DNA of 64,000 nt, taken from assembly GCA_044221725.1 (NCBI GenBank), contig JBGAON010000001.1:64001-128000 (forward strand), in the 5' to 3' direction. A program made the position numbers and the translations under genes. The DNA comes from Elusimicrobiota bacterium (GTDB lineage Bacteria > Elusimicrobiota > Elusimicrobia > F11). Below, one piece after another: positions 31,604 to 64,000 of this stretch; the stretch's first letter is position 1; each line of letters begins with the position of its first letter. The notes under the pieces were generated by a model. It was not told the origin of the DNA. It worked only from the letters and a program-made list of their open reading frames with translations, and did not search any database.

Positions 31604-31616
31604 AGAAATAATCTCC

Positions 31617-32044: not shown

Positions 32045-32073
32045 CGAGGAGGGTGCTGGGCGGGAAAAAACAA

Positions 32074-35256: not shown

Positions 35257-35557
35257 CCAAGGCGACAAGTTTTGGGTAGTGGTCGACGCCAAATCGACCA
35301 GCGAATTGAGCGACATCCTGTTTGAGACGACCATAGATGGGCTGGAGCGCCAATTCAAAGGAGGGTTGACCTCGGACGACAACGTCACCATCTTCGCAGA
35401 CCATAACGAGGCGGCGATGGAGGCGCACCGACGCATGACCGCCGTCAACGTGGCCGAGGCGATCAAGAACATGGCCTCGGCCGACAGCATGAAGAAGGCC
35501 AAAACAGTCGAATTCAAATCCGCCTCCGGCGCGGTGGTGTTTTCCGTGAAATTATGA
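35246..35557 (+). CDS. Hypothetical phage protein
   Basis: AAGGAGGT SD before ATG 35246; stop overlaps the recombinase ATG. Confidence 0.65.
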   Translation: MRINQGDKFWVVVDAKSTSELSDILFETTIDGLERQFKGGLTSDDNVTIFADHNEAAMEAHRRMTAVNVAEAIKNMASADSMKKAKTVEFKSASGAVVFSVKL

Positions 35558-36444
35558 CGGTTAACGCGGCTCTCTTGGCCCGGTTTCTCACCCATCTCCG
35601 CGTGGAGCGCGGGTTGTCAAAATCTACGGAGATCACGTACCGCCATCAACTTCTCGCCTATCTAAACTTCCTCGACCAGAACCGTCAAAGCGTTGAGTCC
35701 GCGACGCACGATGACGTCATGGCGTTTCAAGAACAACGAAAGAACCTGGGGCTTAAATCCGCCTCCCTTTTCATCTCTGCGGTGACGATACGGCAGTTCC
35801 ACCGCTTCCTCAAAGGCCGGGGCCACGCGTCATCCGACCCGACAAGCGAATTCCGGCTGCCAAAATTCAAGCAGCGGATTCCGCAGCCCATCAACGCGAA
35901 CGATATGGAAAAATTGTTGGAGTCTGCTCCCAGTCAAAAGTTCACGGTCATTCGTAACCACGCCATGCTCGAACTTGCCTTCGGGACGGGCATGCGAGTT
36001 ACCGAACTGACTGGCCTCAATGTCAACCAAATCAATTTGACCGAAGGGTGGGTCCGAGTTTTGGGAAAGGGGTCCAAGGAGCGAATCATTCCGGTGGGCA
36101 CCAAAGCCATCGAAGCTTTGGCCATTTATCTTGAAGCCAGGAAGTCGCGATACCCCAATGAGGACGGGCCTTTGTTTGTTAATTCGAGGGGAAAAAGGCT
36201 AACACGGGCGGGATTCTGGTGGCTTTTGCGAGGGAAGGCCAACCAGAAAGGCATCAAGGCAAGAATCTCTCCACACCAACTGAGGCATAGCTATGCCACG
36301 GCCCTTTTGGAGGGCGGCGCCTCGTTGAGAACAATTCAGGTTTTAATGGGGCACGAGCGACTGGATACCCTGCAAAAATATACTCACGTGAGCGCGAAAC
36401 TTCTGAGAGAAACCTGCCGCAAAAGCCACCCACGATTCTCCTGA
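35554..36444 (+). CDS. XerC/D-like tyrosine recombinase
   Basis: GMRVTEL, GKGSKER, HQLRHSYAT and MGH...KYTH catalytic residues; SAM-like N-terminus. Confidence 0.93.
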   Translation: MTVNAALLARFLTHLRVERGLSKSTEITYRHQLLAYLNFLDQNRQSVESATHDDVMAFQEQRKNLGLKSASLFISAVTIRQFHRFLKGRGHASSDPTSEFRLPKFKQRIPQPINANDMEKLLESAPSQKFTVIRNHAMLELAFGTGMRVTELTGLNVNQINLTEGWVRVLGKGSKERIIPVGTKAIEALAIYLEARKSRYPNEDGPLFVNSRGKRLTRAGFWWLLRGKANQKGIKARISPHQLRHSYATALLEGGASLRTIQVLMGHERLDTLQKYTHVSAKLLRETCRKSHPRFS

Positions 36445-36484
36445 ATGCAGAACTGCGGAATGATGGACTAATTTCACAAACAGT

Positions 36485-36513
36485 TTTACAAGTAGTCCAA
36501 AACCGTCTAAAAT
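36485..36513 (+). promoter_or_regulatory. Sigma70-type promoter for the AAA/S8 pair
   Basis: TTTACA (36485-36490), 17 bp, TAAAAT (36508-36513); ATG at 36524. Confidence 0.65.
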
Positions 36514-36523
36514 CCTCGTTATC

Positions 36524-37627
36524 ATGACGGTGAATCAAGTGGAAGAAAAAACACAGTTGGATTCTAGTTTAGTCCAATTGGCCCGGTTGGCGCTCAGTGG
36601 ACGGCGGCAAGATATTGAACTTTTTATCCGCCGACTCATCCATAACAATGGATTGTCCGTCGATGCCTCAAAAAAGCTGACGCGGCTTCTTCAAGACTCG
36701 CCTACCAAGAACTCTCCGCTTCGCAACGAGACGTTTCCCGCTCTTCCCGTGGATATGGATTCGCGGCTTCAACTCTTACGACAGGAATATCCTGCGGTGA
36801 TCGATCAAGAGCCGATTTGGGCTCCCAGTGTACGGAGCAACCTAGAACAGATCATTCAGGAACGCGAGCAAGAATCGAATTTGATCCGGGCCGGCATTCA
36901 GCCCAGCCGGTCTTTGCTTTTTACAGGAGAGCCGGGCGTTGGAAAATCTTTAGCGGCCCGCTGGCTCGCCAACAAACTCCAACTTCCTCTGTTGATTCTT
37001 GATTTGTCCGCTGTCATGAGCAGTTTTTTGGGGCGCACTGGGGCCAACGTGCGGAACGTGATCGACTACGCCAAGGGGAGCCGTGCAATTCTTCTCCTGG
37101 ATGAATTCGATGCGATTGCGAAACGGCGCGACGACGCCGTAGAGGTGGGCGAGTTAAAACGCCTTGTGACGGTTCTTCTCCAAGAGATAGATGACTGGCC
37201 ATCAACCGGAATTCTCATCGCGGCCACCAATCATTCCAACCTACTTGATCCCGCTGTCTGGCGGCGGTTTGATCTTCTCGTCGAGTTTCCCATGCCAACG
37301 GAAGAACAAGTAGGCGAAAAAATAAAGAATGTTTTTGGCGCTGACTCTGAATTGTCCCAGGAGTGGATTGATATTTTGCGCCTGCTTTTGGCGGGATCGT
37401 CATTCGCGGAAATAGAACGAGAGTTGCTCACCATTCGCCGTCGAGCAATTATTAGTCAATCGTCGCATCAAGACCTGATCACGGAATTTGTTAAAAGCAA
37501 AACACAACAACTCAGGAATAAGACCCGTGTTAATATCGCCCAACGCCTGATCGAGTTGGGCTACTCTCAAAGACGAGCTCATGAATGGACAGGCGTAAGC
37601 CGAGACACAATAAGAAAGACGATCTAG
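36524..37627 (+). CDS. ietA: AAA+ ATPase, IetA-like
   Basis: GEPGVGKS Walker A, LLLDEFD Walker B, AATNH, LDPAVWRRFD; C-terminal HTH; paired with an S8 peptidase. Confidence 0.85.
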   Translation: MTVNQVEEKTQLDSSLVQLARLALSGRRQDIELFIRRLIHNNGLSVDASKKLTRLLQDSPTKNSPLRNETFPALPVDMDSRLQLLRQEYPAVIDQEPIWAPSVRSNLEQIIQEREQESNLIRAGIQPSRSLLFTGEPGVGKSLAARWLANKLQLPLLILDLSAVMSSFLGRTGANVRNVIDYAKGSRAILLLDEFDAIAKRRDDAVEVGELKRLVTVLLQEIDDWPSTGILIAATNHSNLLDPAVWRRFDLLVEFPMPTEEQVGEKIKNVFGADSELSQEWIDILRLLLAGSSFAEIERELLTIRRRAIISQSSHQDLITEFVKSKTQQLRNKTRVNIAQRLIELGYSQRRAHEWTGVSRDTIRKTI

Positions 37628-39876
37628 CTTCAGCCCAATCTCCGGCTACCCGGGCCAATTACATCCTGGCTCATGGGGAACGGCTTACCAAACCGGTCAG
37701 TATTCCTCGCGGCGCTGGTGAGAAAGTTCATCCCTATTCCTTCGCCGAGGCCAAAGACCGCCTTCGCCCTCAGATAAAAAAAGTCGTCGAAACCGTTTTC
37801 GCTCTGCCAGCGGACACCTGCCCCAACGATGAAACCGTCATCGGTCTCACGCTTCATCCTTCTTACCTGGCCAAGTCTTATTTCCCAGTCAATCTTCTTC
37901 GCGCCTTAAACTTGCGAGTAGTAGGAAGTCAACGGAAGATGATTTCTCCTGAGAAAACGGTGGGCAAAAAAACGTCAGGAGAAGTTCCGACCGTTGAGTT
38001 ATTTGTGGCAGGACAGCGAAGTGCCATTCAGCGGTTAGCGGAACGGCAAGACAAATGGAATCCTCGATCCACGGAAGCTCAAGACCTGATCCGGATCGAG
38101 AGGATTCAACCCATCAAGCCGGAAGACAAATTTGTTCCTTTTGATTCCAAGGAGGAAGTACCGCTCCTTGAAATTGTTCTCCACGCTTCCAAGAACGCTG
38201 AATCGCGTTACATTGTGGAAGGTTTTTTCAAATTTCTCTCCGGCCTGGGGATCGAGGCCAAGTATTCTGAAAAGAAGCTTTTCGTTGGCGGCTTGTGCTT
38301 TATTCCGCTTCGAGCGCCTCAATCATTGATTCCAAAAATCATCTCCTATTCCTTCTTACGAGTTCTCCGAAAGATGCCGTCTCTGCGGAGCTTCCTTCCG
38401 TTGCTTCGCATGGCCACGAAGACCGAGCCTTTCCCTTTTGATTCTCCTGAGGGAGGCCCTATAAATCCGGATATCCACACAGTTGTTATGGACGGAGGAA
38501 TACCCAGCAATGCAAATCTGAGTCGTTGGGTTCACTACGAAAAGGCTCCTGGCGTAACCGAGGAGGATGAGGATGGACTCAAGCACGGCCTTACCGTCAC
38601 CTCGGCCGTGCTCTTTGGTCCGCTTCAGAAGGACGCTCCGGTTTCCTTTCCGTTCTCACGATTGGATCATTACTGCGTTCTCGGAAAAAACGACCAGGGA
38701 GATTTCATTTACGATGTTCTCGCTCGCGTGATTTCCGTCCTTGAATCCAAGCGGTATGAATTCGCCAACCTAAGCCTCGGACCACGTCTTCCTATCGAAG
38801 ACAACCATGTCGATCCGTGGACATCGGTGATTGACCAAGTGCTCTCGGATGGGAAAATTTTCTTGACAGTGGCCGTTGGCAACGATGGAGACAAAGACAG
38901 GCCCTCCGGCAACGCCCGCATTCAGATCCCTGCGGATTGTGTGAATGCCGTTTCGGTCGGCGCCGCCGATTCATTGTCGAGAATATGGCGGCGGGCTCCT
39001 TATAGTTCCATTGGGCCTGGACGAACACCTGGTTACTTCAAGCCGGATGTGGTTGCGTTTGGGGGGGCGGACGCGGAACCTTTTTGGGTCATCGATCCGC
39101 AGAATCCAGCGTCGACATTTCCAGCGGGAGGGACCAGCTACTCGTCGCCCGCCGCTTTGCGTATCGCTTTGGGCTTAAGATCTCAATACGGGGGCGACCT
39201 TAAACCGCTCGTACTTAAAGCCTTGCTTGTCCATCACAGCGACTCGCTCGGTCACGATAAGATCGAGGTTGGATGGGGAAGGATTCCGGCTTCACTCGAT
39301 GCTTATATGAAGTGTCCCCCGGGCACGATAAAAATTCTCTATCAAGGTGAACTCCCACCCAAAAAATATCTCCGGATCCCCGTGCCGCTGCCGAAGGAAA
39401 CCCTGAAAGGCAATGTGACAATCAAAGCCACTCTGTGTTACGCCACCGAAACCGATCCAGAGCATCCCTTCCATTACAGCCGGAGCGGTCTTGAAGTTAC
39501 TTTCCGGCCGCATTCAAAAGTTCGGTCCCGTCCGGAGCAAGAACAACCAAAAACCACGTCTTTTTTTAGGCCGGACGATCAATACATGACAGAAAGCGCG
39601 TTACGCCGGAGCGCTTTCAAATGGGAATCCACCTTGCATGGGCAGAAGAGAATGAGAGGAGCGAGTCTTGACGATCCCGTGTTCGATGTCCATTACATGG
39701 CGAGAACGGGGGGCAGGCCAGCGAAAGACCCCAAACCAATCGCGTATGCTTTCGTTTTAACGGTCGAAGCGCCCAATCACCCTGACCTCTATGACAACGT
39801 TGTCGTCAGGTATCGAACCCAACTGGAAGCGCTGCGACCTGTGGTTGAGATTCCCATCCAATCTCAGGGAATGTGA
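37585..39876 (+). CDS. ietS: Subtilisin-like S8 serine peptidase, IetS-like
   Basis: Catalytic triad motifs VMDGG, HGLTVTS and GTSYSSP; AVGNDG oxyanion; KPDVVAFGG; no signal peptide. Confidence 0.85.
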   Translation: MDRRKPRHNKKDDLASAQSPATRANYILAHGERLTKPVSIPRGAGEKVHPYSFAEAKDRLRPQIKKVVETVFALPADTCPNDETVIGLTLHPSYLAKSYFPVNLLRALNLRVVGSQRKMISPEKTVGKKTSGEVPTVELFVAGQRSAIQRLAERQDKWNPRSTEAQDLIRIERIQPIKPEDKFVPFDSKEEVPLLEIVLHASKNAESRYIVEGFFKFLSGLGIEAKYSEKKLFVGGLCFIPLRAPQSLIPKIISYSFLRVLRKMPSLRSFLPLLRMATKTEPFPFDSPEGGPINPDIHTVVMDGGIPSNANLSRWVHYEKAPGVTEEDEDGLKHGLTVTSAVLFGPLQKDAPVSFPFSRLDHYCVLGKNDQGDFIYDVLARVISVLESKRYEFANLSLGPRLPIEDNHVDPWTSVIDQVLSDGKIFLTVAVGNDGDKDRPSGNARIQIPADCVNAVSVGAADSLSRIWRRAPYSSIGPGRTPGYFKPDVVAFGGADAEPFWVIDPQNPASTFPAGGTSYSSPAALRIALGLRSQYGGDLKPLVLKALLVHHSDSLGHDKIEVGWGRIPASLDAYMKCPPGTIKILYQGELPPKKYLRIPVPLPKETLKGNVTIKATLCYATETDPEHPFHYSRSGLEVTFRPHSKVRSRPEQEQPKTTSFFRPDDQYMTESALRRSAFKWESTLHGQKRMRGASLDDPVFDVHYMARTGGRPAKDPKPIAYAFVLTVEAPNHPDLYDNVVVRYRTQLEALRPVVEIPIQSQGM

Positions 39877-41586: not shown

Positions 41587-44500
41587 TTAAACCTCCGTCA
41601 TCTCCGCCTCGATGGTGTGTCCAGCGGTCTTGAATAAATCAGTGTAGGGAAACGGAATCTCTTCCAATTTCCAAGCGACGTCGAAGATGTCACGCGTTCG
41701 AAACTTTGGCTCCGGCCAGAAAGTGACCAAGGCGTTCGCCTTGAACGTCTCCTCCAAGACATCCTTCAGTTCCTTAGAAACTTGCTCCACGGTCCAGCGA
41801 CTCATGTACTTGTCGCGGCCCCGGAAAGCCACGATTTTTCCGCCCAATGTCCGGAGCGTCCCAGACTCGACCAGCTCGCGCTTCGGCTCGTATCTGGTGA
41901 AGTTGGGCAACGCGACGAGAAGCCGCCCCGCGTAAATCTCGCCCAGCGTTTTCAATTCGTTCGGAGATTGGCTTGTCTCGATGGCGATGATGATTTGCGC
42001 GGTCAATTTCGGCGGGAACGTGATGATGGCGTCGGTCGTCAGCAATTCTCCAGAGAACACCGTTTCAGGATTGTTGGAGTTCAACTCAGTCAGCGTGATC
42101 GTGACCTTTTTGAAATTGGTGTTTCGAAAGATGATGGTATCGATGACTTCCTCAAAGAAAACCGCCCCCTTCTTGAATCCCAAAGTGAGCGACCACGAAA
42201 TTCCAAACCCTTCGAGTCCCGTGGTGGACACCCATTGGGTGCTGGGATCACCGTCTTTTACATTCGGCACGGTGGATTGGTTCTCCGGTTGCGCCGCGCC
42301 AACGGAAGAGGAAACCGCCACCGCGTCGGGCGTTATGGCGTCCAAGGACAGAATAAGCGGAGTGTCATCGATCAGCGGTTCAATTTCCCAAGAGAGCAAC
42401 AGGATCTCCGGCCCGGGCGATTGAGAAAAAAGACTGAGTTCTACTTCAACGAAGGAGCCGGGAGCCACATCCAAATCCAGTTCGTTTCCAAACACACTCG
42501 GAACAAATTGGCCGGAATCTTTGAAGGAAGCGTTGATGAGGTCCGTCACCGAATCAGCGGATCGTGCTTTAATGCTGATGGGCGCGGGATCGGTTTGGAT
42601 AAGGGTAGATGGAATAACCTTGATCGTTCCCAACCGCGCTCGCGCACCAAGAGAGTCTCGAAACCGGATGAACCCGCTGGAGGCCCCGCTTGTTGGTATA
42701 TCCGTCTCAACGGAATCAAAGAGTTGGGTTGTGCCAGACGGCATGTCGGAGAGATCACTGTCTCCCAACACCAGCCACCGCTGATTGTCGTTGATCTTGA
42801 TGTTAAGCGGCTGGGCGCTGGTGTCAAACCGAATGACCGACTGGTCGTCCTCCGCCTTGATGGTCAACACGCTGGCCACAACAGAGACTTCAAATGTCCA
42901 CAACGTGGACTCTTTTCCGGCCGGGATGACTTGATCTCCGGCCCCAGGCACCCATGTTTGCGTCGTCTGGTTCCACCCCACAAACACGCCGTCGGATCGG
43001 CAGGCCACGATCCCAAACCGATGAGATCCGTCACCTCCCTTGGCTCGACGAATGATGATTGTGTGGTGGGTTGTGGATGTTCCCAAGCCGCCGACTCGGA
43101 TATCATTAGGCACTGGAAGCGTCGCGGCATTAAAAACCGAGAAGACGTTGAATGTCGCACCGTTTTGCATGGCGGATATATCTTCCAGCTTCCACCGCAC
43201 AGTGGCGTTGAAGGCGGCGGGAATAGGCGCGGTCTTGACCAGAATCGCGTCAGCGTCGCCGCCCAAGACGTTCATCCGCAGAAACCCCAGTGAGGAGAAC
43301 ACGTTCGCGTTCCGCTGATAGACCGTCCAATCCGAACCGATCACAAACGCGTCGAACAAGTCTTGGAACACGGGGGACAGCGTCGCCATGCCGTTCACAA
43401 TGGCGATGGACGACGATTTCTCAACCGCACGGCCCCAATCACCGTTGGAGTCGATGATGCGCCGGTAGGTGAGAATGGGTTTAGTTTCTTCTGGTTCGGG
43501 AGTGGGCGTGGATTCAGGGGTGAACTCGAGACTGTAAAGTTCAAGGATCGGTGACGGGCTCGCCTTGGTCAGCAAGACTTTCGTCTCGAAATGTTTCGCC
43601 TGGGGAATATTCAGAATCGCCTTCTCATACAGATTCTGCGGATTACCGGGGTCAAACGATCCCGGCTGGGTGGGCACGACGGAACCAAACGCGGCCGCGT
43701 CAAGTTCCGCGATGGTGTTGCCGGACCGGAATTGCAGTTCCACCTTGTCCCCGACCACGGGGATCTGACGCCGAAACTCAAAATTCTCAAGTTTGGTGTT
43801 GACCCCGAAACTATGCCGAAGACGCAAGAAACCCGTCGGAACTTCGACCGGAGGAGAGTTTAAATTCAGAAAGTCGATGTCGAAGGCGACGCCAAACGAT
43901 GAATTAAAAAGGGATGTCGAACCGATCTCGAAAAAAATATCTCCGCCCAAGTTTCGGAGGTTGGGCGAGACGCTGGTTTCCAACAAGATGTTCGCCAAAT
44001 TGTCCGAGTGGTAGAGAAGATATTTGACTCCGTTTCCCACTCGCGTCACTTTTAGGTTGAAGATGTGCGGATCATTGGCGAGAAAACCGTTTTGGACATT
44101 GATGTTCGGCCACGTACCGGAACCGGACGCGTGAATGGTTCCGCTTCCGTCCACCATACGGGCGTCGTAACTGACGTTGAAATTGTTCTGGGTGTTAAAC
44201 CGAAATTCATGAAGAAGTTTAGCGGTCCGCGCGGCGCCGTCATAAGCTCCTCGCGTTCCTTGCAACATCCCAATCACGAATTGACCGGAATTGAATATGG
44301 GCGCCAAACGCCGGAGCCGGAAGCGAAGCTCCATTTCCCAATTGCCTTGGGCCACGTCGCGGTACATGTGAATGTGCTCGCCGGATCCGCTCGTATTCTG
44401 ATACTCAAAACTCAAAAACCCGCCGCCTTCCGTCGGCTTGACGTTTAAGTCGACGGCGCGGTAAACGCGGAACATGAAATCATGCGGGACAAATTGGAAT

Positions 44501-45123
44501 TCCCATTGGCCCGTGCCGGAATTGAGGAACGAGTTTTTTCCGTCGGGATATGGATTATTATTCAGGTCGTAGTACCAGACGATGTGAGTCCCGGATGTCC
44601 CCAGCGGATTCGTGTAGAAAACAATCGCGAGCTTCTGGTTGGCGGGAAGTGTCGGGAGCGACGGAAAATCAAATCCCGTAAATCCGCTTAAGGGAGCCAC
44701 GCTCGAAAAGGGAACCGTGACCGAGGCGAGCACCGTTCCGTTGGGCCGGTCGTCGGCGTTCGCCATTTGAATTTCAACGATTAAATCCGGAGAGAATGAT
44801 CCAATATTGAACTCATCGATTTTCAGTTCGAGCCGGCTAAGCTGAATCGGAATGGGCAAAATGAACGTCTGGGCGAGTTTGATGCGTGGCGGTGCTACCG
44901 CTAGCGGTTCATCAAATGGAGAGATCGGATCGAACTGTGCGATCAGCGAATTGGAAACATGCCCTTTCCATTCCGGAGCGCGCGTACCGTCATTAAAATT
45001 GTCGGCAAGAATAAGCGGCGTTGCGCCAGAAGAAAGGACGCAGCCAGCGTTATCGGTATTGATACCGACATTCTCAACCGCCTGGTCCCATTCCGCTTTC
45101 GTGTCAAAAGTTAGCTTCGGCAT
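41587..45123 (-). CDS. Large tail tip / receptor-binding protein with several beta-sandwich domains
   Basis: Position after the tape measure; repeated 'FxDxFD' lectin-like domain starts; DGDPSTQW discoidin-like motif. Start moved to ATG 45123. Confidence 0.7.
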   Translation of the reverse strand: MPKLTFDTKAEWDQAVENVGINTDNAGCVLSSGATPLILADNFNDGTRAPEWKGHVSNSLIAQFDPISPFDEPLAVAPPRIKLAQTFILPIPIQLSRLELKIDEFNIGSFSPDLIVEIQMANADDRPNGTVLASVTVPFSSVAPLSGFTGFDFPSLPTLPANQKLAIVFYTNPLGTSGTHIVWYYDLNNNPYPDGKNSFLNSGTGQWEFQFVPHDFMFRVYRAVDLNVKPTEGGGFLSFEYQNTSGSGEHIHMYRDVAQGNWEMELRFRLRRLAPIFNSGQFVIGMLQGTRGAYDGAARTAKLLHEFRFNTQNNFNVSYDARMVDGSGTIHASGSGTWPNINVQNGFLANDPHIFNLKVTRVGNGVKYLLYHSDNLANILLETSVSPNLRNLGGDIFFEIGSTSLFNSSFGVAFDIDFLNLNSPPVEVPTGFLRLRHSFGVNTKLENFEFRRQIPVVGDKVELQFRSGNTIAELDAAAFGSVVPTQPGSFDPGNPQNLYEKAILNIPQAKHFETKVLLTKASPSPILELYSLEFTPESTPTPEPEETKPILTYRRIIDSNGDWGRAVEKSSSIAIVNGMATLSPVFQDLFDAFVIGSDWTVYQRNANVFSSLGFLRMNVLGGDADAILVKTAPIPAAFNATVRWKLEDISAMQNGATFNVFSVFNAATLPVPNDIRVGGLGTSTTHHTIIIRRAKGGDGSHRFGIVACRSDGVFVGWNQTTQTWVPGAGDQVIPAGKESTLWTFEVSVVASVLTIKAEDDQSVIRFDTSAQPLNIKINDNQRWLVLGDSDLSDMPSGTTQLFDSVETDIPTSGASSGFIRFRDSLGARARLGTIKVIPSTLIQTDPAPISIKARSADSVTDLINASFKDSGQFVPSVFGNELDLDVAPGSFVEVELSLFSQSPGPEILLLSWEIEPLIDDTPLILSLDAITPDAVAVSSSVGAAQPENQSTVPNVKDGDPSTQWVSTTGLEGFGISWSLTLGFKKGAVFFEEVIDTIIFRNTNFKKVTITLTELNSNNPETVFSGELLTTDAIITFPPKLTAQIIIAIETSQSPNELKTLGEIYAGRLLVALPNFTRYEPKRELVESGTLRTLGGKIVAFRGRDKYMSRWTVEQVSKELKDVLEETFKANALVTFWPEPKFRTRDIFDVAWKLEEIPFPYTDLFKTAGHTIEAEMTEV

Positions 45124-45124
45124 G

Positions 45125-47869
45125 TCAGGCAACACCAACCAGATCAAGTTCAGTCCGCATGTCCATGAGCGAATGGGCGATACCGATAATTCGAGCATCG
45201 AACGGCTGAATGATGAGCCGAGGCGATGTGATGTTGAGGGTCACACGATCACCCAATTCAAGTTCTGGCAGAAATCTGGCGACGACCGTCGCCCGACGAT
45301 TGGGAAGATGGTATCGGGTGAAGTACCGTTTCGCCATGACCGTGGCAAGATCCACGTCAGTTTGAAAAACAAGGTTTCCTCCACCGACAGGAAGCGCCCT
45401 TACTCCAAACCGGTCCATGCTTGTCGGCGAGGCTTCGCCTTCTGTCTCCGAATCAATCTCTTTGGTGAAACTCCCAAAGGACGCGCGGATTTTGTTGTAG
45501 ACGCGATCCCAGCCTGGGGTGGCATTCGCCACCTTTTCAACGTTGGTGTCATCGAGGACAAGGACAGAAGTCGCGGTAATGGTCTTGTTTCGAAAAAAGA
45601 AAGCCCCATCGCCGTCCAAGCCGATTTCATAGTCGGCGATCTTGGCGAGTTCCTTGATCACGTCCAGGATCGATTGCGTTCCGAAGTTCGCCATCGAAAC
45701 TAGGACGCTTCGCGTCTTGAAGTTGATGAGACTTTCCCGTTGGATGGGGGCATTCGCACCGGCGGTGGAGAAAAGGCTTATGAAGATCAGCTTTTCTGTG
45801 CGAACAGCAAAATTATTGAAGGCGTATTCATCGGTCTGGATGGAGTTGCTGGGACCGAGCGCTTGGTAATAACTGAACCCCGATGGTGAGCTCGCCACCG
45901 CCGCCGTGAATCTTTGAATCTGCCCATCATTGGGGACGAATGACCCCTTCCAAGTGTCCCATGAGACCATGCCCGATCCAGCATCGATCACGTTTGATGC
46001 GGCGAGCGCCGGTAGGAACAACCTCTTCACCGCGACCAAATCCGGATCTTCGGTGGCGGTGATTTGAATTTTGAATTTGACGTAACGAGGGAATGTCACA
46101 TTCGTAAAGGCACCCAAATTGGAGCCGTTGGCGACGGATTGCTCAGGCGTGTAACTGCTCCCGTTGGCGCTCCATGAAAAGAAATATTGGAACGTGGACA
46201 CTACGCCTTGGATCTCAGAGAAGAACGCGCCCAACGTTGTTATCAGGGAGAAACTCGTGAGTCCGGCGAGATGAACACCGTAATCGATCACCTTTTCCCA
46301 AGTGCCGATGGGCAACGCCGCTGTCGAGCCGTTGTATCGGAGGTAATCCAATTGAAAATTGGTTTGGGTGAAGGCGAGAGCGTGAAGATAGACGCCCACC
46401 GAGGCTCCCGCTGGCGCAGTCCCTAGAGCGCCTGAGGCAGTCGAAACTCCATCAACGAACAATTGCCACGTGCTCGTCGACATATTCATTTGTAGTCGGA
46501 GGTTTCGGAAGTTCGTGAGGTCAGCGGCGTACGGCCCGAAAGTGGTTCCGCCGGATTGAACCCGGACTTGGTTTGTGCTTTGGATGAGGATCTGCGCCCC
46601 TTTGGAGTTTGAAAGCGCGAACGATCCAATTTCGATCTGCCCGTTAATCTGCGTGACCTTGATCCGAACCGCCACGCAGCGTGAAAGACCGCTTCCATCC
46701 TCTTTGAGATTTTCAATGCGATAAAAACTTGTCGGGGCGCTCACCGATAAAATCCCATTGGCAACTGACCGCGTGACGCCCGCGCCGTCGTTCAAATCCT
46801 CAATCCAGGGATCATTCGACCCCTCTCCAACTTTTTCTTTCTCTTCTTCGGGAAGGAATAGTCCCTCGTACTGGGAAGTCCACTTGGGAGTAATAGAATT
46901 GGAAATGCGATCAAAATTAAGACCCGAATGGGTCGCCGCCTGCCATTTTGATTTGGTGTCGAAGGCATCGATGGTGAGGAGGCCATCGTTCTGCGGCGGA
47001 GATTCTTCCGTTGTCACTTTTGACTGTCGCAACTCGTACAAATTGAAATCGCCTTGAAGCGTGTGGAGAATTTCCCGTTCCACCGGTGGATCGAAAACCA
47101 CCGGTTCCACAACGCCAACTGGCACCTGCGGCACGGTCGCTAGAAGTTGGTTCACCACTTGATGAATTTCTTGATCCCGCTTCCAGACAATGTAGTCGGC
47201 CCGCACATCCTGTCCGGGTCCCGGTTGGGCGGAGATGAAGGTAACCTTGCCGGGCTGGAGCGGATCGTTGAGGTTGGACAAGGAATATCGAAGGCCGGGC
47301 CGGAGCGTCTCGCCGCCCACTCGAATCTCTTTGATTGCCCCAACGGGATACTGCGAGGTCAAAAACTCCGAGGTGACTCCGTCACCGACGCCCAATAATT
47401 CGTTCGTGACCAGAATGCCCGCCGCCTCTCCTGATTGTGTGCGAAGCAAAGCATCGATGCTCTCGACATCAAGCTGAATTGTCGGCGTTGATGAATCTTC
47501 ATTCACATCCTCAATCACACCTGTGAAAGCTGGAAAAGATTCTTCGAGTCCGTTCACCTTCAAGCCGAGCGTGATGCGAATACGAGAGCGGTAAACTAGA
47601 AATCCAGAAAAACGGGACGAAGTCCCATCCCAAAGTCTTTCAGAATTATCGACCTCGATACGGATATTCGAAGCCTTAAATTCATTGAGCGCGTCGGTAT
47701 CCAATTTCCAGGAAAGCCGGTCGAGCCGAACCACTTCCGTCGTAATGTCGATGGGCGTAACTTCCCATCCATTTCCAGAGGCCAATCGACGGAACAATTC
47801 AATTTTTCTCACTGGATAAATGAGGTTTGATTTCTGGATCGCTCTGTAGTCGGCAGAAACGATCTTCAC
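45125..47869 (-). CDS. Tail hub/Tal-like protein with inserted lectin-like domain
   Basis: Follows the tape measure; FTGVIEDV, SMDRFG and LELGDRV hub-type motifs. Confidence 0.7.
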   Translation of the reverse strand: MKIVSADYRAIQKSNLIYPVRKIELFRRLASGNGWEVTPIDITTEVVRLDRLSWKLDTDALNEFKASNIRIEVDNSERLWDGTSSRFSGFLVYRSRIRITLGLKVNGLEESFPAFTGVIEDVNEDSSTPTIQLDVESIDALLRTQSGEAAGILVTNELLGVGDGVTSEFLTSQYPVGAIKEIRVGGETLRPGLRYSLSNLNDPLQPGKVTFISAQPGPGQDVRADYIVWKRDQEIHQVVNQLLATVPQVPVGVVEPVVFDPPVEREILHTLQGDFNLYELRQSKVTTEESPPQNDGLLTIDAFDTKSKWQAATHSGLNFDRISNSITPKWTSQYEGLFLPEEEKEKVGEGSNDPWIEDLNDGAGVTRSVANGILSVSAPTSFYRIENLKEDGSGLSRCVAVRIKVTQINGQIEIGSFALSNSKGAQILIQSTNQVRVQSGGTTFGPYAADLTNFRNLRLQMNMSTSTWQLFVDGVSTASGALGTAPAGASVGVYLHALAFTQTNFQLDYLRYNGSTAALPIGTWEKVIDYGVHLAGLTSFSLITTLGAFFSEIQGVVSTFQYFFSWSANGSSYTPEQSVANGSNLGAFTNVTFPRYVKFKIQITATEDPDLVAVKRLFLPALAASNVIDAGSGMVSWDTWKGSFVPNDGQIQRFTAAVASSPSGFSYYQALGPSNSIQTDEYAFNNFAVRTEKLIFISLFSTAGANAPIQRESLINFKTRSVLVSMANFGTQSILDVIKELAKIADYEIGLDGDGAFFFRNKTITATSVLVLDDTNVEKVANATPGWDRVYNKIRASFGSFTKEIDSETEGEASPTSMDRFGVRALPVGGGNLVFQTDVDLATVMAKRYFTRYHLPNRRATVVARFLPELELGDRVTLNITSPRLIIQPFDARIIGIAHSLMDMRTELDLVGVA

Positions 47870-57134: not shown

Positions 57135-58037
57135 TTACAGGGTGACGCCGGCCAAACGGGAAACCTTGATGTCGTTGCCCAGAACCAGCGTCAAGTCTTC
57201 GAACACGTCGAACTCACTGTACTGGGATGATTTCTGCGCAAGCCGAACCATCTTGAGCGGGGTCAGTTCGCCCACCCATACCGCGCTCGTGTCCAACACA
57301 AAAATGTCGGAGCAAACGTTGGACGTGCCTTGGGTCTGCGTGTCCGAAACGAAAATACTTCGGAAGATCGGAATCCCGTTGTAAACCTGAACCCGGAATC
57401 CGCCATTCACTTCCATCGTGTCCACGAATCGCTGTTGGGCCTGCAGAAGACCGTTCAATTTTCGGTTCGCTTTCTTCGACATGATCAGCATGCCAGGATT
57501 GCCGCGATTCAAATCAATCGCCGAATCCAACAGATCAAGCGTGAGAGGAGCGCCGTTGGCACCGGCCACAAGCACCTGTCCAGCGGGCGTGAGTTTCCTC
57601 AACCCGTCGAACTGCTTCGGGTTCACAGCCGAGTCACCGTTGATGAGTGCGTTCTCTTCCGTGTCACGAACCACTTGAAGCGCGCTTTCGATTTCCTCAG
57701 CTTCGATGTCGAGCAGAGTTTTTCCGACCGCCTGCAACTTCCGCGTCGCCTTACCCCGCTGAATGATTGTCTTGTAGGTGAACTTTTTCTGCAGGTAGGT
57801 GGACTGCGTGTCTGTCGGCTCTTCCGTGTCGTCCACAAAGCCGCCCGTGCCGCGCGCTGTCCGTTGGTTTAAGATCCAATCGGATCCAGACCCAGGTTTT
57901 CTCGGCAGGTTCTGCCGGAGTGGGTTGTTGACCTCGATCAATTCCTGAAGCACCCGGTCAACCAACGGCTGTTGCAGGGTGTTTCCGGCGTTCGCGATGT
58001 TCAGCGCTTTTTTCAACTGCTCTAAATCATTTGTCAT
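57135..58037 (-). CDS. Major capsid protein (HK97 fold)
   Basis: Follows the protease; EENALINGD...FDGL, YNGIPI; AAGGAGG SD. Confidence 0.88.
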   Translation of the reverse strand: MTNDLEQLKKALNIANAGNTLQQPLVDRVLQELIEVNNPLRQNLPRKPGSGSDWILNQRTARGTGGFVDDTEEPTDTQSTYLQKKFTYKTIIQRGKATRKLQAVGKTLLDIEAEEIESALQVVRDTEENALINGDSAVNPKQFDGLRKLTPAGQVLVAGANGAPLTLDLLDSAIDLNRGNPGMLIMSKKANRKLNGLLQAQQRFVDTMEVNGGFRVQVYNGIPIFRSIFVSDTQTQGTSNVCSDIFVLDTSAVWVGELTPLKMVRLAQKSSQYSEFDVFEDLTLVLGNDIKVSRLAGVTL

Positions 58038-58051: not shown

Positions 58052-59167
58052 TTAGGCTTGCTGAAGGGCGAGCGCCACTTTCAGCTTCTTCTGGGGCGGC
58101 AAACCCTCAAATGTTTTTTTGAGCTCATCGCCTTGCGGCTCCTGATCAACCAATCCCTTTCGAATGGCCGGGATCTGTTTGAGCATCGGCTCAATTTGTT
58201 TCTTCACTTCGCTGGAAATCATCTCCGCCATCTCTTCTTTGCTGACGGATTTCGGAACTGCGGCCGAGGCGGGCGGCGTCCACTGTTCACCGATCGCTTG
58301 TTTCAGCATGGCCTTGATCTGGATCGCGGTTGGTCCGATCTCGCCGCCCATCGCAATCAAGCGGTCAAGCATCATCCACACAGGTTCAAGCGAGAGGCCT
58401 CCGGCCGAAGGGCCGTTGGCTTTTTTCGTTTCCTTTTCTTTTTTTGGTTTGCTGTCCTTCCCTGCAACTTTTTCGGGCGGCTGATCCTGCGGAGCGGGGG
58501 TTTCTTGGGGCTGGGGTTCCGGTTTGGGATCCGCTGGTTTTTCTTCTGGGACTGGAGCATCAGCGGGTTTTTCGTCGTCCGGCTTGATCTCCTCAATAAT
58601 GGTTTCTTCTTGAGACATGGTGTCTCCTCCTTGGGTCGATGACCCGTTCTGGGAATCGATTTCATCGAGCGCTTTCTGGACGTACCATCCAATGGCGCGG
58701 GCTTCGGGATTGGCAGGCACGGACACAAGCGACACTTCCACGAGCGCCATGCGCTTGATGACGTTCACCACTCGGTCCAAGTCCGGCATGTATTTCTTCT
58801 CACGCTCCAGCACCTGGCCTCGAATGGAAAATTTGTTGAGAACGCCCTCTTTGATTTTCTGAATGATTTCGGGTTCGGTTTGGGAAATGAGGACATCGAT
58901 AAGGAGGCCGTTTTTGTCGAACTCGGCTTTGGTCACTTTGCCGATGGGAATCTTGATGTCGTGGTTTAAGAGGACGGTGGAATTTTTGACGAGGTCGAGC
59001 TGGGAGGCCCGCAGAGCATCTTCGGAGATGATGTCGCCCTGCAGGTCAAAATCCGAGGTGGCGGCGTACCCGACAATATGGAACTCGCCTTCGGTTTCCG
59101 CTTGTTTGGTGATCTCCAGCGGAAAATCGAATGAGATTTTCTCCAGTGTTGCCGTTTCCTGTTCCAT
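58052..59167 (-). CDS. HK97-family prohead protease with C-terminal scaffold
   Basis: VGYAAT...DLQGDII, LLNHD, FSIRG, EVSLVSVPANPEA. Start at ATG 59167 behind GGAGG. Confidence 0.92.
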   Translation of the reverse strand: MEQETATLEKISFDFPLEITKQAETEGEFHIVGYAATSDFDLQGDIISEDALRASQLDLVKNSTVLLNHDIKIPIGKVTKAEFDKNGLLIDVLISQTEPEIIQKIKEGVLNKFSIRGQVLEREKKYMPDLDRVVNVIKRMALVEVSLVSVPANPEARAIGWYVQKALDEIDSQNGSSTQGGDTMSQEETIIEEIKPDDEKPADAPVPEEKPADPKPEPQPQETPAPQDQPPEKVAGKDSKPKKEKETKKANGPSAGGLSLEPVWMMLDRLIAMGGEIGPTAIQIKAMLKQAIGEQWTPPASAAVPKSVSKEEMAEMISSEVKKQIEPMLKQIPAIRKGLVDQEPQGDELKKTFEGLPPQKKLKVALALQQA

Positions 59168-59195
59168 GATCCTCCGGGCTTCCGCCCACACACAT

Positions 59196-59274: not shown

Positions 59275-59469
59275 TTATGCTTCGATCAATTTTTTCACGC
59301 CTTCTTCCACCAGCGTCTCATGCCGTTTGATGCGGATGATGTGTCCATTTTCAAAATGCGTTTCCACAACTCCGAAGAACTTTTCGTCCTTGAGCTTCCT
59401 GCAGAACGCCTGATAAACCGCATCCGTGACTGCCGATTTCGCATCCATGCCATTATTCTGGATCATCAA
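59275..59469 (-). CDS. Small DUF2292/YezD-like protein
   Basis: KFFGVVETHFENGHIIRIKRHET fits the 'FG.V.I....G.V..I.R.E' pattern; start may be the Met of MDAKS. Confidence 0.6.
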   Translation of the reverse strand: MMIQNNGMDAKSAVTDAVYQAFCRKLKDEKFFGVVETHFENGHIIRIKRHETLVEEGVKKLIEA

Positions 59470-59541: not shown

Positions 59542-61257
59542 TTATGAAGACATCTTCTCGACGTAGGTTTCTGACTCCTTGACCGGATAATTTGACACCA
59601 GCAACTCAAATTTATTCCGGTGTCCCAATTGATTCGCGCCCGTCCAAAGGGTTTTCACGCGGTAGGTTTTGAATCCTTTGAATAGGTTCTTTTTCTCCAG
59701 CTCGTAACTCAACAAAAACCGGCCTTTGATGGATTTGAGAACCGGTAACATATCCTCTTCCTTGAAAAACTTTGATCCGACTCCGCCCGTTTCTTTCGGC
59801 CAGTGAAGAGGATACGGCGGATCGAGATAGAAAAAGGCGTCCTTGGAATCGAATTCCTTTATCACGTCTTTCCAATCTTTGTTTATGAGTTTCACGCCGC
59901 GAAGCCGTTCTTTAATTTGCGGAAGCCGCTTCACCAGTTGGATCTCGTATCCCTCGCCTTTCTCTCCGGTTCGCATGCCTTCTATCCGGTCGGTGCGGCC
60001 CCAGTAATTGGCTTTGTTCAGGTAAGCGATCCGGTAAAACCGCTCGCGTGGGGACGATGGCTCGCGGTCGAACACTTTTTTAACGTGGGTACGGGAGATT
60101 GTCCAATACTGCTTCTCCAGCCATTTCTGATCCTCTTCATCCATATGCTTGATGAAGCGATACGCGAAAATGAGATCCGGGTTCACGTCGTTTAAGATTT
60201 CTTCGTTCGACCGTTTCTTATGGAAGAATACCTGGGCACCGCCACAAAAGCCTTCCACGAATGTCTTGTGTTCGGGAATCATGGGGACGAGTTTCTTGCA
60301 GAGGCGAAACTTTCCCCCAGGGCTTTTGAACGCACCTTGAATTTTCTCAACGCCATCATGCCCCTCCAAATGCGGAAAAAGAAGCGGGACGCCTTCTTCC
60401 ATACCTTCTGGTTTGGCGTCCAACTCCTTGTCGATGTAGAGGTGCTTTTTCTCGAGCGGATGTTTTGAAACAAGAAGCTCCGTCACCCACTCCTGATTGC
60501 CACCGGGCCCGCGCATTTGGTTGCGGCGCTTCACGCGATAAACGTTCATCCCTTTGAACGCGTTGGCTCGGTCACCGGTGTAGGACACGATCCAATCACC
60601 TCGAAGGGTTTTCAATTTCTTGATGAACTTCTGTTCTTCAAAACCGAAATCAAAAAGATTGAATGTGCCCGGGTACGGCGGGTCGATGTAGAAGAACGTG
60701 TCCTCCCCGTCATATTTCTTAAGCACCTCGGAATAATCCTTGTTGTGAACAACAACGTTTTTAATCCGCTGTTGGGAGCGGGTGATGTTGTTCTCGAAAT
60801 CAATGATCACGCCTGCGTTGGCCGGATTAAAGGAACCGCCCCGCATCTTCCCGTAGGAGGAGCGTGTCAAATAATAGGCCTTGTAGAACCGGTCCATCTC
60901 GGTGACCGGCTTCATCTTTTTCAACCGCTCGTGCGTTTCTTTGTTGATTTCCCAGTTCCGTTTGGCGAGAGCGGCGCGATCTTCCTTCGTGTGGTCGCGG
61001 ATAAACCGGTACATGAAGGCGATTTCGGAGTCGCGGTCGTTGATGATTTCTTGCGGTGACGGATCTTTGGCGAAAAGAACCGCCGCACCACCAGCAAACG
61101 GTTCAACGTAAGTTTTGTGATAAGGAATGTATGCGGCGATCTTGTGCGCGAGTGCACGCTTGCCGCCGTAGGAGCCGAAGGCTTGCCGAACTCCTTTTTC
61201 TAAATCTGATTCTCCGCTCACCGGCTGATCAGCCGGTGAAATTTCTGTTGGTTCCAT
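59542..61257 (-). CDS. Tandem two-domain Dam-like (D12 class) N6-adenine DNA methyltransferase
   Basis: Two full motif sets: YGGK/EPFAGG/IND/YIDPPY/ELLVS and PGGK/EGFCGG/LND/YLDPPY/ELLVSN. Confidence 0.92.
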   Translation of the reverse strand: MEPTEISPADQPVSGESDLEKGVRQAFGSYGGKRALAHKIAAYIPYHKTYVEPFAGGAAVLFAKDPSPQEIINDRDSEIAFMYRFIRDHTKEDRAALAKRNWEINKETHERLKKMKPVTEMDRFYKAYYLTRSSYGKMRGGSFNPANAGVIIDFENNITRSQQRIKNVVVHNKDYSEVLKKYDGEDTFFYIDPPYPGTFNLFDFGFEEQKFIKKLKTLRGDWIVSYTGDRANAFKGMNVYRVKRRNQMRGPGGNQEWVTELLVSKHPLEKKHLYIDKELDAKPEGMEEGVPLLFPHLEGHDGVEKIQGAFKSPGGKFRLCKKLVPMIPEHKTFVEGFCGGAQVFFHKKRSNEEILNDVNPDLIFAYRFIKHMDEEDQKWLEKQYWTISRTHVKKVFDREPSSPRERFYRIAYLNKANYWGRTDRIEGMRTGEKGEGYEIQLVKRLPQIKERLRGVKLINKDWKDVIKEFDSKDAFFYLDPPYPLHWPKETGGVGSKFFKEEDMLPVLKSIKGRFLLSYELEKKNLFKGFKTYRVKTLWTGANQLGHRNKFELLVSNYPVKESETYVEKMSS

Positions 61258-61261
61258 GTTC

Positions 61262-63370
61262 TTACACCTCGCTTATGAATGTGCACCGGCAATTGGGATG
61301 AATCGGCAGAAGCGTCCTTGCCTCATCCATCGCCAGCGTCTTGCCCAGTTTCTCACCGGGGATTGATTCCGACACCGCCCGGCATTCCGGGCAAGCGTCT
61401 GGCGACAAAAGAAAAACGACCTTCTCAATGCCCGCTTGATTGAGCGCGTCCAGATTGCCTTCGTTGTAGGCGCGGTTGGCCTCGGTTCGGGCGATTAGCT
61501 CCGCCGCCGATGACCGCGATACGCTTCGCGTATGCCCGGTCCGGATAACATTGCCTTGGGCGTCAATGACGGGTCGGACATTCACGGTGGCGAACGCATC
61601 CAACTGTGCCTCGACCCGCGATTGAAGCTGTTGAACGGACTCGTTGGCCGCGATCCCTTCGATGAGCGCTTGACGGAGAGATGCCTTGATCGATTCCGCT
61701 ACATGCCCCGCCAATGTAGAAGCGTTGTTTCGTAAAAGCTCTTCCACCTCGGAGCTAATGTCATCAATGTCTTTGAGCTTGTTCCGTTGCGCCGCCAATT
61801 TCAGCGCTTTCACAGCCGCTTCAAGCGAATGCTTCTCAATAACTCGGGCGAGCCCTTCTTCATCAATCAGCTCCAAGATAACTTCGAGGTCGTCCAACCG
61901 TTTCAGCGCCTCGGGAAATTTAAACTGGTGGAGAGTGATGTCGTGATAGCGAATCACGACCGGCTCGAACGGGAGACTGCCTTTCTCAACTTTGGGTACG
62001 ATCCGTTCCCGAACAATGGTTGGAATTCGTCGTGAGACGGCGTTCTTGATCTGGCGGAACACGTTCTCAAGAGAACGCACGAACCGGTTTTCGATGTCGA
62101 CCACCGCTCGCGTCGCCTGAACAATTGTCTGCGCTGGTGTCAGCGTGCCCTTTTGAATCTCACCCTCGCCCCGAAGAGCCTTTTCCATCTCCGGCATACG
62201 GGGGGCTACAATGCGCCGAACTTCCTCCGGCGAGAACACGCCGCCTTGAAGATAGATGTTGAAGATCTCGGCCTGGTCTTTGTCATCGATGGATCGCTTG
62301 TTGAATTGGAACGCCCAGTCCTGAATCCCGAAGCCCTGTCGGATAATATGCTTGGTGATCTTCTCGGCCAACCGCATTTGAAAAGGAAGAATAGTCTCCT
62401 CATAGAAGGTCTGTGTTTGGTGCTCACCCGTTCCGGCCCCAATGTTTCCCGTCTCGATGATCGACACCTTGCTGGGCGGCACGCCGTAGACCGCGAGGAT
62501 TTCATTTCGCGTGAACTCTCGCAGCGCCAAAAACTCCATGTCCTTTTGGTTGACGCCGATCTGCTTGTATTCGATCTCGCCTTCCAACACCAAATCGGAA
62601 TGGGCGGAGTCCGGGTTCTTGGCGCGAGCCTGCAAATACTCACGGTTCCGCTCCACTTGTTCCGCGGTCGAGTTTTTCATGATGAACGCGCCGCGAATCT
62701 TTCCGCCATTGATAAAGAATGCGCGGTTGTAGATCTGGGCAAATTTGTCCACGGTGACGGGAAGAATGAGGGAGGCGAGAGGCGACAAGCCGTAAAGGGT
62801 CGCGCCCTTGGTGCCAAGCTTAAAGTGAATCACCTCATCCGGCCCGAAATCCACGCGGCCACTTTTCGCGGCCAGGGAATATTTCGGCATCTGGACATAT
62901 CCTTGAATGGCCCCGTGCTCATCGGCCTTGACCCGAACCGTTGTGACGTCCAGATTCCACAGCTCCTTCGGTTTACCGTCCGCGCCCCGAACCACCTCAA
63001 GGAAGGCGTTCCCGAAAACATATTCATCCCGCGTGATGTCATCAAGGATTTCCAGGAGCGTATCGTTGGGGTTGCAGTTGGAGAAAAACTCCGAAAGGAG
63101 TTCGGCGTCTTTGGGGTCGGCGTTTGGCTTGGTCGGGACGAGCGAATAGCCGCGCGCCGTGACCGCCTTGCAGATGACGCCCACCACGGCCCGTACCCAG
63201 GAGGTCTGCTCGTACATCTGGTTGTAGATTTCGAGATCGATCTCCGGCAGAATCCCTTCCGAGGAACTGAGTCCCAAAACATGGGACACCACCTGCCTTG
63301 AGGATTTTTGAATCTCCTCTTTGATCACGTCAGGAAAGAAAAACTTAACGAATCGCTCTTTGATCTTCAT
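61262..63370 (-). CDS. Portal protein fused to a Mu gpF/SPP1 gp7 minor head domain
   Basis: FGNAF, EVIHFK...YGLSPL and ILAVYGVPP portal motifs; C-terminal IARTEANRAYN...CPEC...PIHPNCRC. ATG 63370 overlaps the terL stop. Confidence 0.92.
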   Translation of the reverse strand: MKIKERFVKFFFPDVIKEEIQKSSRQVVSHVLGLSSSEGILPEIDLEIYNQMYEQTSWVRAVVGVICKAVTARGYSLVPTKPNADPKDAELLSEFFSNCNPNDTLLEILDDITRDEYVFGNAFLEVVRGADGKPKELWNLDVTTVRVKADEHGAIQGYVQMPKYSLAAKSGRVDFGPDEVIHFKLGTKGATLYGLSPLASLILPVTVDKFAQIYNRAFFINGGKIRGAFIMKNSTAEQVERNREYLQARAKNPDSAHSDLVLEGEIEYKQIGVNQKDMEFLALREFTRNEILAVYGVPPSKVSIIETGNIGAGTGEHQTQTFYEETILPFQMRLAEKITKHIIRQGFGIQDWAFQFNKRSIDDKDQAEIFNIYLQGGVFSPEEVRRIVAPRMPEMEKALRGEGEIQKGTLTPAQTIVQATRAVVDIENRFVRSLENVFRQIKNAVSRRIPTIVRERIVPKVEKGSLPFEPVVIRYHDITLHQFKFPEALKRLDDLEVILELIDEEGLARVIEKHSLEAAVKALKLAAQRNKLKDIDDISSEVEELLRNNASTLAGHVAESIKASLRQALIEGIAANESVQQLQSRVEAQLDAFATVNVRPVIDAQGNVIRTGHTRSVSRSSAAELIARTEANRAYNEGNLDALNQAGIEKVVFLLSPDACPECRAVSESIPGEKLGKTLAMDEARTLLPIHPNCRCTFISEV

Positions 63371-64000
63371 GCCAGGTCCTCCACGAAATTGATGCACGGC
63401 TCAATCTTCTTTTCTTGAAACGGGCGCAGAGCCAAATACAGCGCGTCCAAGAGATCGTCTTTGCCGGTTGGAAAATGAATCAGTTGCTCTTCAAGATTTT
63501 CGAGGCGCTCGGGCATCCGTAAGGTCCCGTTTTCAAAATAAGGCGTGAGGCCCCGGATCCGTTCGTGCTTGTCACCTTTGGTGTGGTGGGGCTCGATGGG
63601 GATATTTTTTGTTTCCGGGTCCGATCGAAGGGATTGAACGAGAGAATTCTGATATCCGTTTGTCTCGATGATGACGCGGGTCGGTTTATGAACATGATAG
63701 ATCCGCTCAATCGCTTTCTTCTGTTCCAGAAAACTCAATTGGTCGTGATAGGCGTCCAGCACATAAACATCCCGCGCCTTGCTCACGCCCACCACGCAGA
63801 TTGCGAACCGCGACCCTTCCTCTCTTTTCGTGATGGCCGGATCCACGCCCGCATAAACCGTCAGATCATCAGGCAGCTGCTTGTATCTCGCGGACTCAAT
63901 CCACGCGAGTTTGAAATCCGCCTTTTCGCCGCCCGCCGGATCATTTCGATACAAGCAGTTGTAAGCCAATGTCCCCATTTGAGCCCGGATCAGATTCAGC
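63367..64000 (-). CDS. terL: Terminase large subunit, C-terminal nuclease part (5' end outside the window)
   Basis: GVDPA, IETNGYQ, KHERI and FPTGKDDLLDA RNase H-like motifs; upstream of the portal. Confidence 0.9.
   Translation of the reverse strand, partial: LNLIRAQMGTLAYNCLYRNDPAGGEKADFKLAWIESARYKQLPDDLTVYAGVDPAITKREEGSRFAICVVGVSKARDVYVLDAYHDQLSFLEQKKAIERIYHVHKPTRVIIETNGYQNSLVQSLRSDPETKNIPIEPHHTKGDKHERIRGLTPYFENGTLRMPERLENLEEQLIHFPTGKDDLLDALYLALRPFQEKKIEPCINFVEDLA

Follow-up and report, generated by a model that had tools for sequence, protein, structure and literature searches.

T4-like and giant phages offer established cases of head cargo that is processed by a protease and ejected, and virion methylases are, to our knowledge, represented mainly by DarB of phage P1. 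In T4, the internal proteins IPI-III and Alt are described as entering the prohead, losing their propeptides to the prohead protease gp21, and being ejected, and IPI is reported to counter restriction (PMC9026906). The motif described for T4 and SPN3US, L/I-x-E or A-x-E, is common to cargo, capsid, and scaffold, including the SPN3US gp245 substrates (PMC9026906, PMC10052503). The P1 Dar proteins are presented as a head-packaged antirestriction system acting in cis, in which DarB has an adenine methylase domain and whose mechanism is described as unclear (PMC12707154, PMC5512222). Polyvalent proteins are multi-enzyme chains encoded among head genes, for which passage into the virion, processing, and injection are predicted; some of them end in an assemblin-type head protease, and 2H, PRTase, ART, and MuF recur as partners (PMC5512222). 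Their methylase is of the DarB-type gamma class, fused to an SF2 helicase, and a zincin peptidase is held mainly responsible for cutting them; the main text of that paper has no match to "D12," "XkdF," or "DNA ligase," and we found no cleavage motif in it (PMC5512222).

In HK97, gp5 reads F-N-K103 followed by Ser, and a cut at this point gives the 282-aa mature chain found in the PDB, which agrees with the statement in an initial annotation of our locus that the HK97 protease cleaves its capsid after a Lys. Further copies of hydrophobic-x-K-[AS] lie in the domain that is removed. Here, we analyze a 64,000-nucleotide stretch of an Elusimicrobiota genome (the window), in which one gene of a prophage head operon encodes two Dam-like methylases in a single chain (Table 1). 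Since the ends of the methylase domains look like head-protease sites, the two enzymes are probably packed in the head and delivered with the DNA.

The tandem methylase and its head operon

Table 1. Features of the tandem methylase gene and of the neighboring head genes, in window positions
Feature	Positions	Strand	Remarks
Terminase large subunit, C-terminal part	63367..64000	-	Continues past the window
Portal-MuF fusion	61262..63397	-	Likely start ATG near 63370; candidate sites K31, K406, K416, K472
Tandem D12 adenine methyltransferase protein, 571 aa	59542..61257	-	Predicted from ORF, profiles, and model
Acidic 21-aa leader, candidate propeptide	61195..61257	-	Ends in L-E-K21; low model confidence
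Methylase domain 1, residues 22-277	60427..61194	-	Ends in I-D-K277
Acidic linker, residues 278-305	60343..60426	-	Ends in V-E-K305
Methylase domain 2, residues 306-568	59554..60342	-	Ends in V-E-K568
64-aa ORF between methylase and protease	59275..59469	-	Without known family
S78 (HK97-type) prohead protease with C-terminal scaffold	58052..59191	-	Candidate sites K18, K29, K173
Major capsid protein	57135..58037	-	Short N-terminal peptide ending in L-K-K10

By profile, motifs, and predicted fold, the 571-aa protein is a D12 (Dam-class) N6-adenine DNA methyltransferase. PF02086 matches it in two stretches (E 2.7e-43; 149 bits against a cut-off of 22), and TIGR00571 scores 164.8, above its cut-off of 114.85. 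As read from the sequence, each domain carries one F-x-G-G SAM motif (residues 54-57 and 337-340) followed by a DPPY motif (192-195 and 479-482), all of them intact, and the two domains are 34% identical. The structural model contains two well-folded Dam-like domains whose best match is E. coli Dam, a Foldseek comparison with 4rtj giving an E value of 7e-14. The mutual placement of the domains is not fixed in the model (pTM 0.51), and pLDDT falls below 50 at residues 5-23, 272-284, and 568-571. Residue 3 of T4 Dam aligns with residue 308, just past K305, which places the T4 Dam start at I306; K305 itself falls on a Lys that E. coli Dam has natively near its N terminus. Conservation is moderate in the middle of the linker.

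The initial annotation had read two complete methylase domains between portal and protease, with edges at K21, K277, K305, and K568 and with an acidic leader and linker. Both intact D12 domains and all four lysines are found as it described, and acidic residues account for 6 of 21 positions in the leader and 8 of 28 in the linker. Its placement of the gene stands with two amendments, namely, that the portal is a portal-MuF protein and that a 64-aa ORF precedes the protease. Since the portal is such a fusion (PF04860 at 67-396 and PF04233 at 569-708), K406 and K416 fall at the portal/MuF junction.

The gene order is terminase, portal-MuF, methylase, 64-aa ORF, S78 protease with nested scaffold, capsid, and neck and tail genes. 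The prohead protease belongs to the PF04586 family, with a TIGR01543 match below the cut-off of that model; His77 and Ser122 are invariant in 10 aligned rows, so the enzyme is predicted to be active, and V-Q-K173 closes its catalytic domain. An ATG at 58618 on the minus strand (Met192 of the protease gene) lies behind a strong ribosome-binding site, and Met occupies this position in 8 of 9 aligned relatives, which points to a separately translated, nested scaffold. Head genes are the neighbors of the methylase, and no restriction gene is found beside it. Short, low-depth contigs in two RNA-library runs, read without a silent control, span the head module including the methylase.

The prophage covers ~38 kb, at ~104-142 kb of the contig. 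At one of its ends lies a gene that, by eye, looks like a serine recombinase, and convincing att repeats were not found at the prophage. A tyrosine integrase, an AAA ATPase, and a subtilase-family protease (35554-39876, plus strand) adjoin its left end; we take the AAA-subtilase pair to resemble a known toxin-antitoxin or defense type. Farther away, a host kdp potassium-uptake cluster (24673-34246, minus strand) includes two KdpD-like sensors, one of them fused to a PTS EIIA domain.

Compared with its host, the prophage avoids several palindromes, namely, GCWGC, GGCC, and several 6-base words (counts against expectation on both strands: GCWGC, 19 versus 55; GGCGCC, 8 versus 33; CGATCG, 8 versus 29). 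Since the host does not avoid them, the prophage appears to be under restriction pressure. GATC stands at 0.94 of expectation in prophage and host alike, neither avoided nor enriched. PRK10904 scores 49 bits on the methylase against a cut-off of 441, leaving GATC specificity of the domains a candidate, and word counts in prophage versus host gave no candidate for the target sequence.

The initial annotation had further pointed to hydrophobic-x-K tripeptides in the portal, in the protease, and at the capsid N terminus, with the caveat that such tripeptides are common. All of the lysines it listed are present (candidate sites and L-K-K10 in Table 1), and the caveat is well founded: because the methylase holds 30 copies of hydrophobic-x-K, 26 of them besides the four flank sites, the window alone proves nothing. 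When the motif is restricted to copies followed by a small P1' residue, the methylase has 1 versus 1.4 expected, the portal 4 versus 1.1 (p 0.014), the protease 3 versus 1.0 (p 0.08), and the capsid 1 versus 0.5, and four tail proteins have none. Separately, a 1203-aa tail protein without known family (41587-45198, minus strand) has 4 versus 1.2 expected (p 0.026). The P1' residues after K277, K305, and K568 are E, I, and M, none of them small, and those at the HK97 site and at most head-protein sites of the window are A, S, or G. A complex predicted for the linker and the protease domain scored 0.05 (mark 0.32), which speaks neither for nor against a cut. Motif counts within the window do not exceed chance, whereas homologue comparisons do.

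Relatives and their boundary residues

The homologues comprise 308 proteins of similar length, 120 of which were listed, and 102 longer ones, giving 222 listed sequences. Close relatives with names come from Elusimicrobia; 16 of the 61 genomes searched hold a match (10 of them a strong one), and in genome G002 the gene occurs in five or more related copies. One, two, three, and four D12 domains are found in 74, 119, 28, and 1 of the 222 listed homologues, respectively. An XkdF-type prohead protease is part of the same chain in 108 of the 222, nearly always at the C terminus, and two relatives carry the methylase inside the portal protein. Single-domain versions occupy the same slot of the head operon, and the co-cargo in relatives includes ATP-dependent DNA ligase, 2H and metallo-beta-lactamase phosphoesterases, NUDIX, uracil-DNA glycosylase, and others; the window's methylase is without the ligase and repair domains of its longer kin. 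D12 proteins of at least 360 aa lie in a head module at 46 of 61 loci and stand-alone D12 proteins at 12 of 128, as counted over fetched loci with enough flank by a marker-based detection of head genes that likely misses some. The position between portal and protease is a variable cargo slot.

Domain 1 matches 271 of 50,697 cultured-phage records, the listed ones at 28-35%; among the best 60 of the 271, for most of which the annotation names an ordinary adenine methylase, no cultured phage with such an arrangement was identified. Two variants of the arrangement deserve mention in their own right. The Elusimicrobia relative P0121 has, at residues 298-406, a zincin-like metallopeptidase (Pfam ATLF match) ahead of two methylases, and at L056, L061, L064, L074, and L080, separate stand-alone D12 genes are paired in tandem near head genes, with short flanks.

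Stand-alone D12 proteins start and end at matching flank positions: of 107 clusters, 88 have a Met no more than 12 aa from the same anchor, and in 87 the chain ends no more than 10 aa from the core. Enzymes of natural size would therefore result if the chain were cut at the flanking lysines. Just before the domain, hydrophobic-x-K is present in 88 of 148 long-protein clusters (made at 70% identity), against 24.6 in shuffles (maximum of 38 in 2000 shuffles), and hydrophobic-x-E is present in 25 more of the 148. Among stand-alone ORFs with enough upstream residues, hydrophobic-x-K precedes the domain in 10 of 50.

The residue at one flank tends to go with that at the other. With flank residues read by alignment column, the 49 clusters having the window's type of C-terminal tail include 33 with Lys at both flanks and 8 with Glu at both; four of these eight rows are exactly aligned, and four use a Glu two residues before the Lys column under a rule set post hoc. 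The rest are one with Lys in front and Glu behind (L185), one with Glu one residue early (L008), and six whose N-flank residue is unreadable or of another kind. None of 10 internal Lys-rich columns switches to Glu, and Lys and Glu contents are equal in both flank classes. In a tree built from 33 domain cores stripped of their flanks (23 chosen K rows, 9 E rows, and L185), well-supported branches force at least four K/E changes and a single E clade is rejected; L011 (K/K) and L016 (E/E) are sisters in this tree at 100/99. The motif bias of the whole protein agrees with the flank class in 15 of 18 long polyproteins, P0158 and P0125 being opposite and P0171 flat. A locus for P0158 was looked for and not found, and that of P0152 stops short of the protease.

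The flank residue also mostly follows the head. Head type was scored from the scaffold, protease, capsid start, and portal start, with the methylase left out. Starting from 33 usable loci, from which nine with weak scores and one duplicate were dropped, we found K-flanked methylases with 19 of 19 K-type heads and E-flanked ones with 3 of 4 E-type heads (p 0.002, a value overstated by kinship because relatives are not independent). The nine loci dropped for a weak head score comprise six that agree, two that disagree, and one that is unreadable. In E-type heads, protease and capsid are fused as in Mu, and hydrophobic-x-E precedes both of these domains. At L185 (L185:9107-13870), an E-type head accompanies a methylase with Lys in front and Glu at the back, possibly a recent transfer that is half adapted.

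The K568 column holds Lys in 32 of the 34 relatives that extend at least three residues beyond it and in 2 of the 9 that end there, a count in which one row without an anchor is omitted and some short rows may be truncated. In close relatives, hydrophobic-x-K is present in all rows at the portal/MuF junction (12), the end of the protease domain (11), and the capsid N terminus (13), duplicates being included in these row counts. Short-leader copies have leaders that diverge otherwise and still end in hydrophobic-E-K.

K21, K277, K305, and K568 are kept in 37 of 38, 38 of 38, 38 of 38, and 28 of 34 two-domain homologues, respectively. We rejected this conservation as a diagnostic: five internal lysines are also kept in 38 of 38, so conservation alone does not identify cut sites. 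Since five of the 26 other hydrophobic-x-K motifs are equally conserved, only accessibility could explain a selective cut. An alignment of homologues had been proposed at the outset as a check on whether the motifs are conserved and enriched at domain edges; the enrichment at the flanks is borne out, together with a concerted Lys/Glu switch, whereas conservation by itself does not discriminate.

Boundaries of other kinds occur as well. At L026 (L026:2-3212), Arg replaces Lys by eye before the methylase and before an HK97-like capsid domain, but its treatment as an Arg-type locus, which would hint at an Arg-specific protease, is unsupported by the automatic score (z 0.1). A boundary of yet another type, with Leu after Glu, is seen at the methylase start in L014 (L014:4708-8584), P0148, P0151, P0175, P0184, and P0200, and in L014 also at the capsid start.

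The closest two-domain homologues differ from the window's copy in having, in 35 of 38 cases, a helical N-terminal module of ~90 aa. This module, which has conserved His residues, is found in both K- and E-type polyproteins and at the starts of separate genes (L017:9734-10021 and its kin); in long polyproteins it is often internal, beside the ligase, and it is absent from many protease-fused forms. It folds confidently in the model and has a weak likeness to T4 endonuclease V (Pfam E 0.002-0.025; Foldseek E 3.4, Z 4.6); no significant structural match was found, and an Atlas search gave no match. If the module targets proteins to the head, the window's methylase may not be packaged. Since many protease-fused kin lack it and it is often internal, however, it need not be a targeting signal.

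A proposed pathway and its alternatives

We propose that the gene fills the variable slot of an array of the type portal-MuF, cargo, prohead protease, capsid, and that its 571-aa product would be a precursor made late and taken up by the procapsid. The S78 protease, which on the comparative evidence would cut after hydrophobic-x-Lys, would remove leader, linker, and tail and thereby free two ~30-kDa Dam-class methylases of stand-alone size. By analogy, the freed enzymes may exit the head with the DNA and, using host SAM, set N6-methyladenine on two different sequences of the incoming genome before host restriction can cut it. We give a probability of roughly 0.55 to this reading, i.e., that the protein is capsid cargo, cut into free methylases that are ejected to protect incoming DNA. 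Its last part, ejection and antirestriction, is suggested by the analogy with the T4 internal proteins and Alt, by the ligase and phosphoesterase co-cargo, and by the avoidance of palindromes; ligase, phosphoesterase, NUDIX, and uracil-DNA glycosylase as co-cargo make most sense in a cell.

Timing aside, the window's methylase is probably packaged and cut, judging from the sequence comparisons, and the same holds with greater confidence for the family as a whole. The initial annotation had proposed loading into proheads and cleavage into two enzymes; the Lys/Glu switch, the loss of the terminal Lys, and the fusions to protease and portal support both steps well, if indirectly. Observations that stand against our preferred reading include the L185 exception, the E, I, and M residues at P1' of three sites, the match of K305 to a native Dam Lys, and the lack of the ~90-aa module in the window's copy.

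All of the evidence for packaging and cleavage would apply equally if the enzymes acted earlier, inside the prohead while the terminase pumps, with SAM entering through pores of the shell, so that virion DNA would be premethylated and the host chromosome spared. Such timing would avoid a race with host nucleases and the passage of folded 30-kDa domains through a siphophage tail, but the ligase and phosphoesterase co-cargo of the slot points to action after ejection, and the T4 internal proteins and Alt are described as ejected (PMC9026906); we consider it quite unlikely. Unlikely, too, is a division within the family, which would be processed head cargo in general while the window's short copy would be a late, soluble, cytoplasmic methylase marking progeny DNA, its lysines being leftovers. 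The window's copy does lack the ~90-aa module that all but 3 of its 38 closest two-domain homologues have, as well as the ligase and repair domains, and its relatives, at 66-88%, are close enough for the lysines to persist unselected. Against this, divergent short leaders still end in hydrophobic-E-K, K568 is kept ahead of a 3-residue tail, and many protease-fused relatives are also without the module, which is often internal, so that a targeting role is not required.

M.FokI is a fused two-domain methylase of a Type IIS system, and the window's protein might likewise remain uncleaved, with one domain for each strand of an asymmetric site, the lysines being structural or DNA binding and the gene an ordinary moron. 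The two complete D12 domains at 34% identity, the correspondence of K305 to the native N-terminal Lys of E. coli Dam, and the moderately conserved center of the linker fit this picture. We nevertheless hold it to be very improbable: the number of domains varies from 1 to 4 among homologues, with single-domain versions in the same slot, a restriction gene is absent beside the methylase, and a structural Lys would neither become Glu at both ends together nor vanish when terminal. Two cleaved products could, moreover, share one asymmetric site. The least probable alternative is that methylation controls packaging, for instance through a methylated pac site that the terminase would recognize, as with Dam methylation in P1. 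The methylase indeed lies directly downstream of the terminase and portal, but this role leaves the protease-type boundaries, the fusions to protease and portal, and the variable number and kind of domains unexplained.

Extended beyond the window, our preferred reading, of protease-cut cargo, becomes a more general one, which we consider slightly likelier than its contrary: HK97-like and Mu-like temperate phages of many uncultured hosts would deliver the enzymes of this slot as protease-punctuated polyproteins, whose methylase flanks are both rewritten from Lys to Glu on a move to a head with a different protease, the window encoding a virion-borne pair of Dam-class methylases that head maturation would release and that would methylate the genome on entry or before it. 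The literature that we searched, in which subscription papers are sparsely covered, yielded no description of D12 methylases in the role of protease-cut cargo or of a Lys/Glu co-switch. If this reading is true, the boundary residue would reveal both the specificity of the head protease and the list of cargo from sequence alone. The co-switch would be a natural experiment that ties cargo ends to protease specificity, could help in predicting packaged antidefense enzymes in uncultured phages, and suggests a route for loading enzymes into lambda-like capsids. A two-enzyme cargo in a small HK97-type head would also make cis protection by a packaged methylase, and its timing, testable.

Comparison with known systems

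In fold, SAM and DPPY motifs, and domain size, the window's methylase resembles E. coli Dam, T4 Dam, and DpnM, but these are single-domain, cytoplasmic enzymes and the window's protein has two domains. It departs from methylases of the M.FokI type in that the domain pair is not fixed, homologues having 1 to 4, and in that head genes rather than a Type IIS endonuclease adjoin it. With the P1 Dar system it would have in common that an adenine methylase is carried in the head and counters restriction in cis. In contrast to P1 DarB, only PF02086 is found, in the DPPY order of the alpha class and without an SF2 helicase, and none of the DarA, Hdf, and Ddr partners of P1 Dar is seen at this locus.

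The window's protease is of the same family as HK97 gp4 (PF04586). In HK97, nothing intervenes between the portal and protease genes, unlike in the window, and the window's capsid differs from that of HK97 in having a propeptide of only ~10 aa, with the scaffold nested in the protease gene. The likeness to the T4 internal proteins and Alt lies in a candidate protease motif that capsid, scaffold, and portal have in common with the methylase at predicted propeptide ends, and, as in the T4 type, the phage encodes a protease of its own, here of the S78 family with conserved His77 and Ser122 and presumably active. Unlike in T4, the predicted cut comes after Lys, the phage is a small temperate one of the HK97 type, the cargo is a polyprotein that would be cut between enzymes, and protection is predicted to come from methylation instead of nuclease inhibition. 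With polyvalent proteins, finally, the window's methylase shares a virion and packaging gene context, between portal-MuF and protease; it differs from them in combining two methylases and no disparate activities in its chain, whereas its longer relatives, with ligase, phosphoesterases, and protease in one chain, resemble polyvalent proteins in this respect as well.
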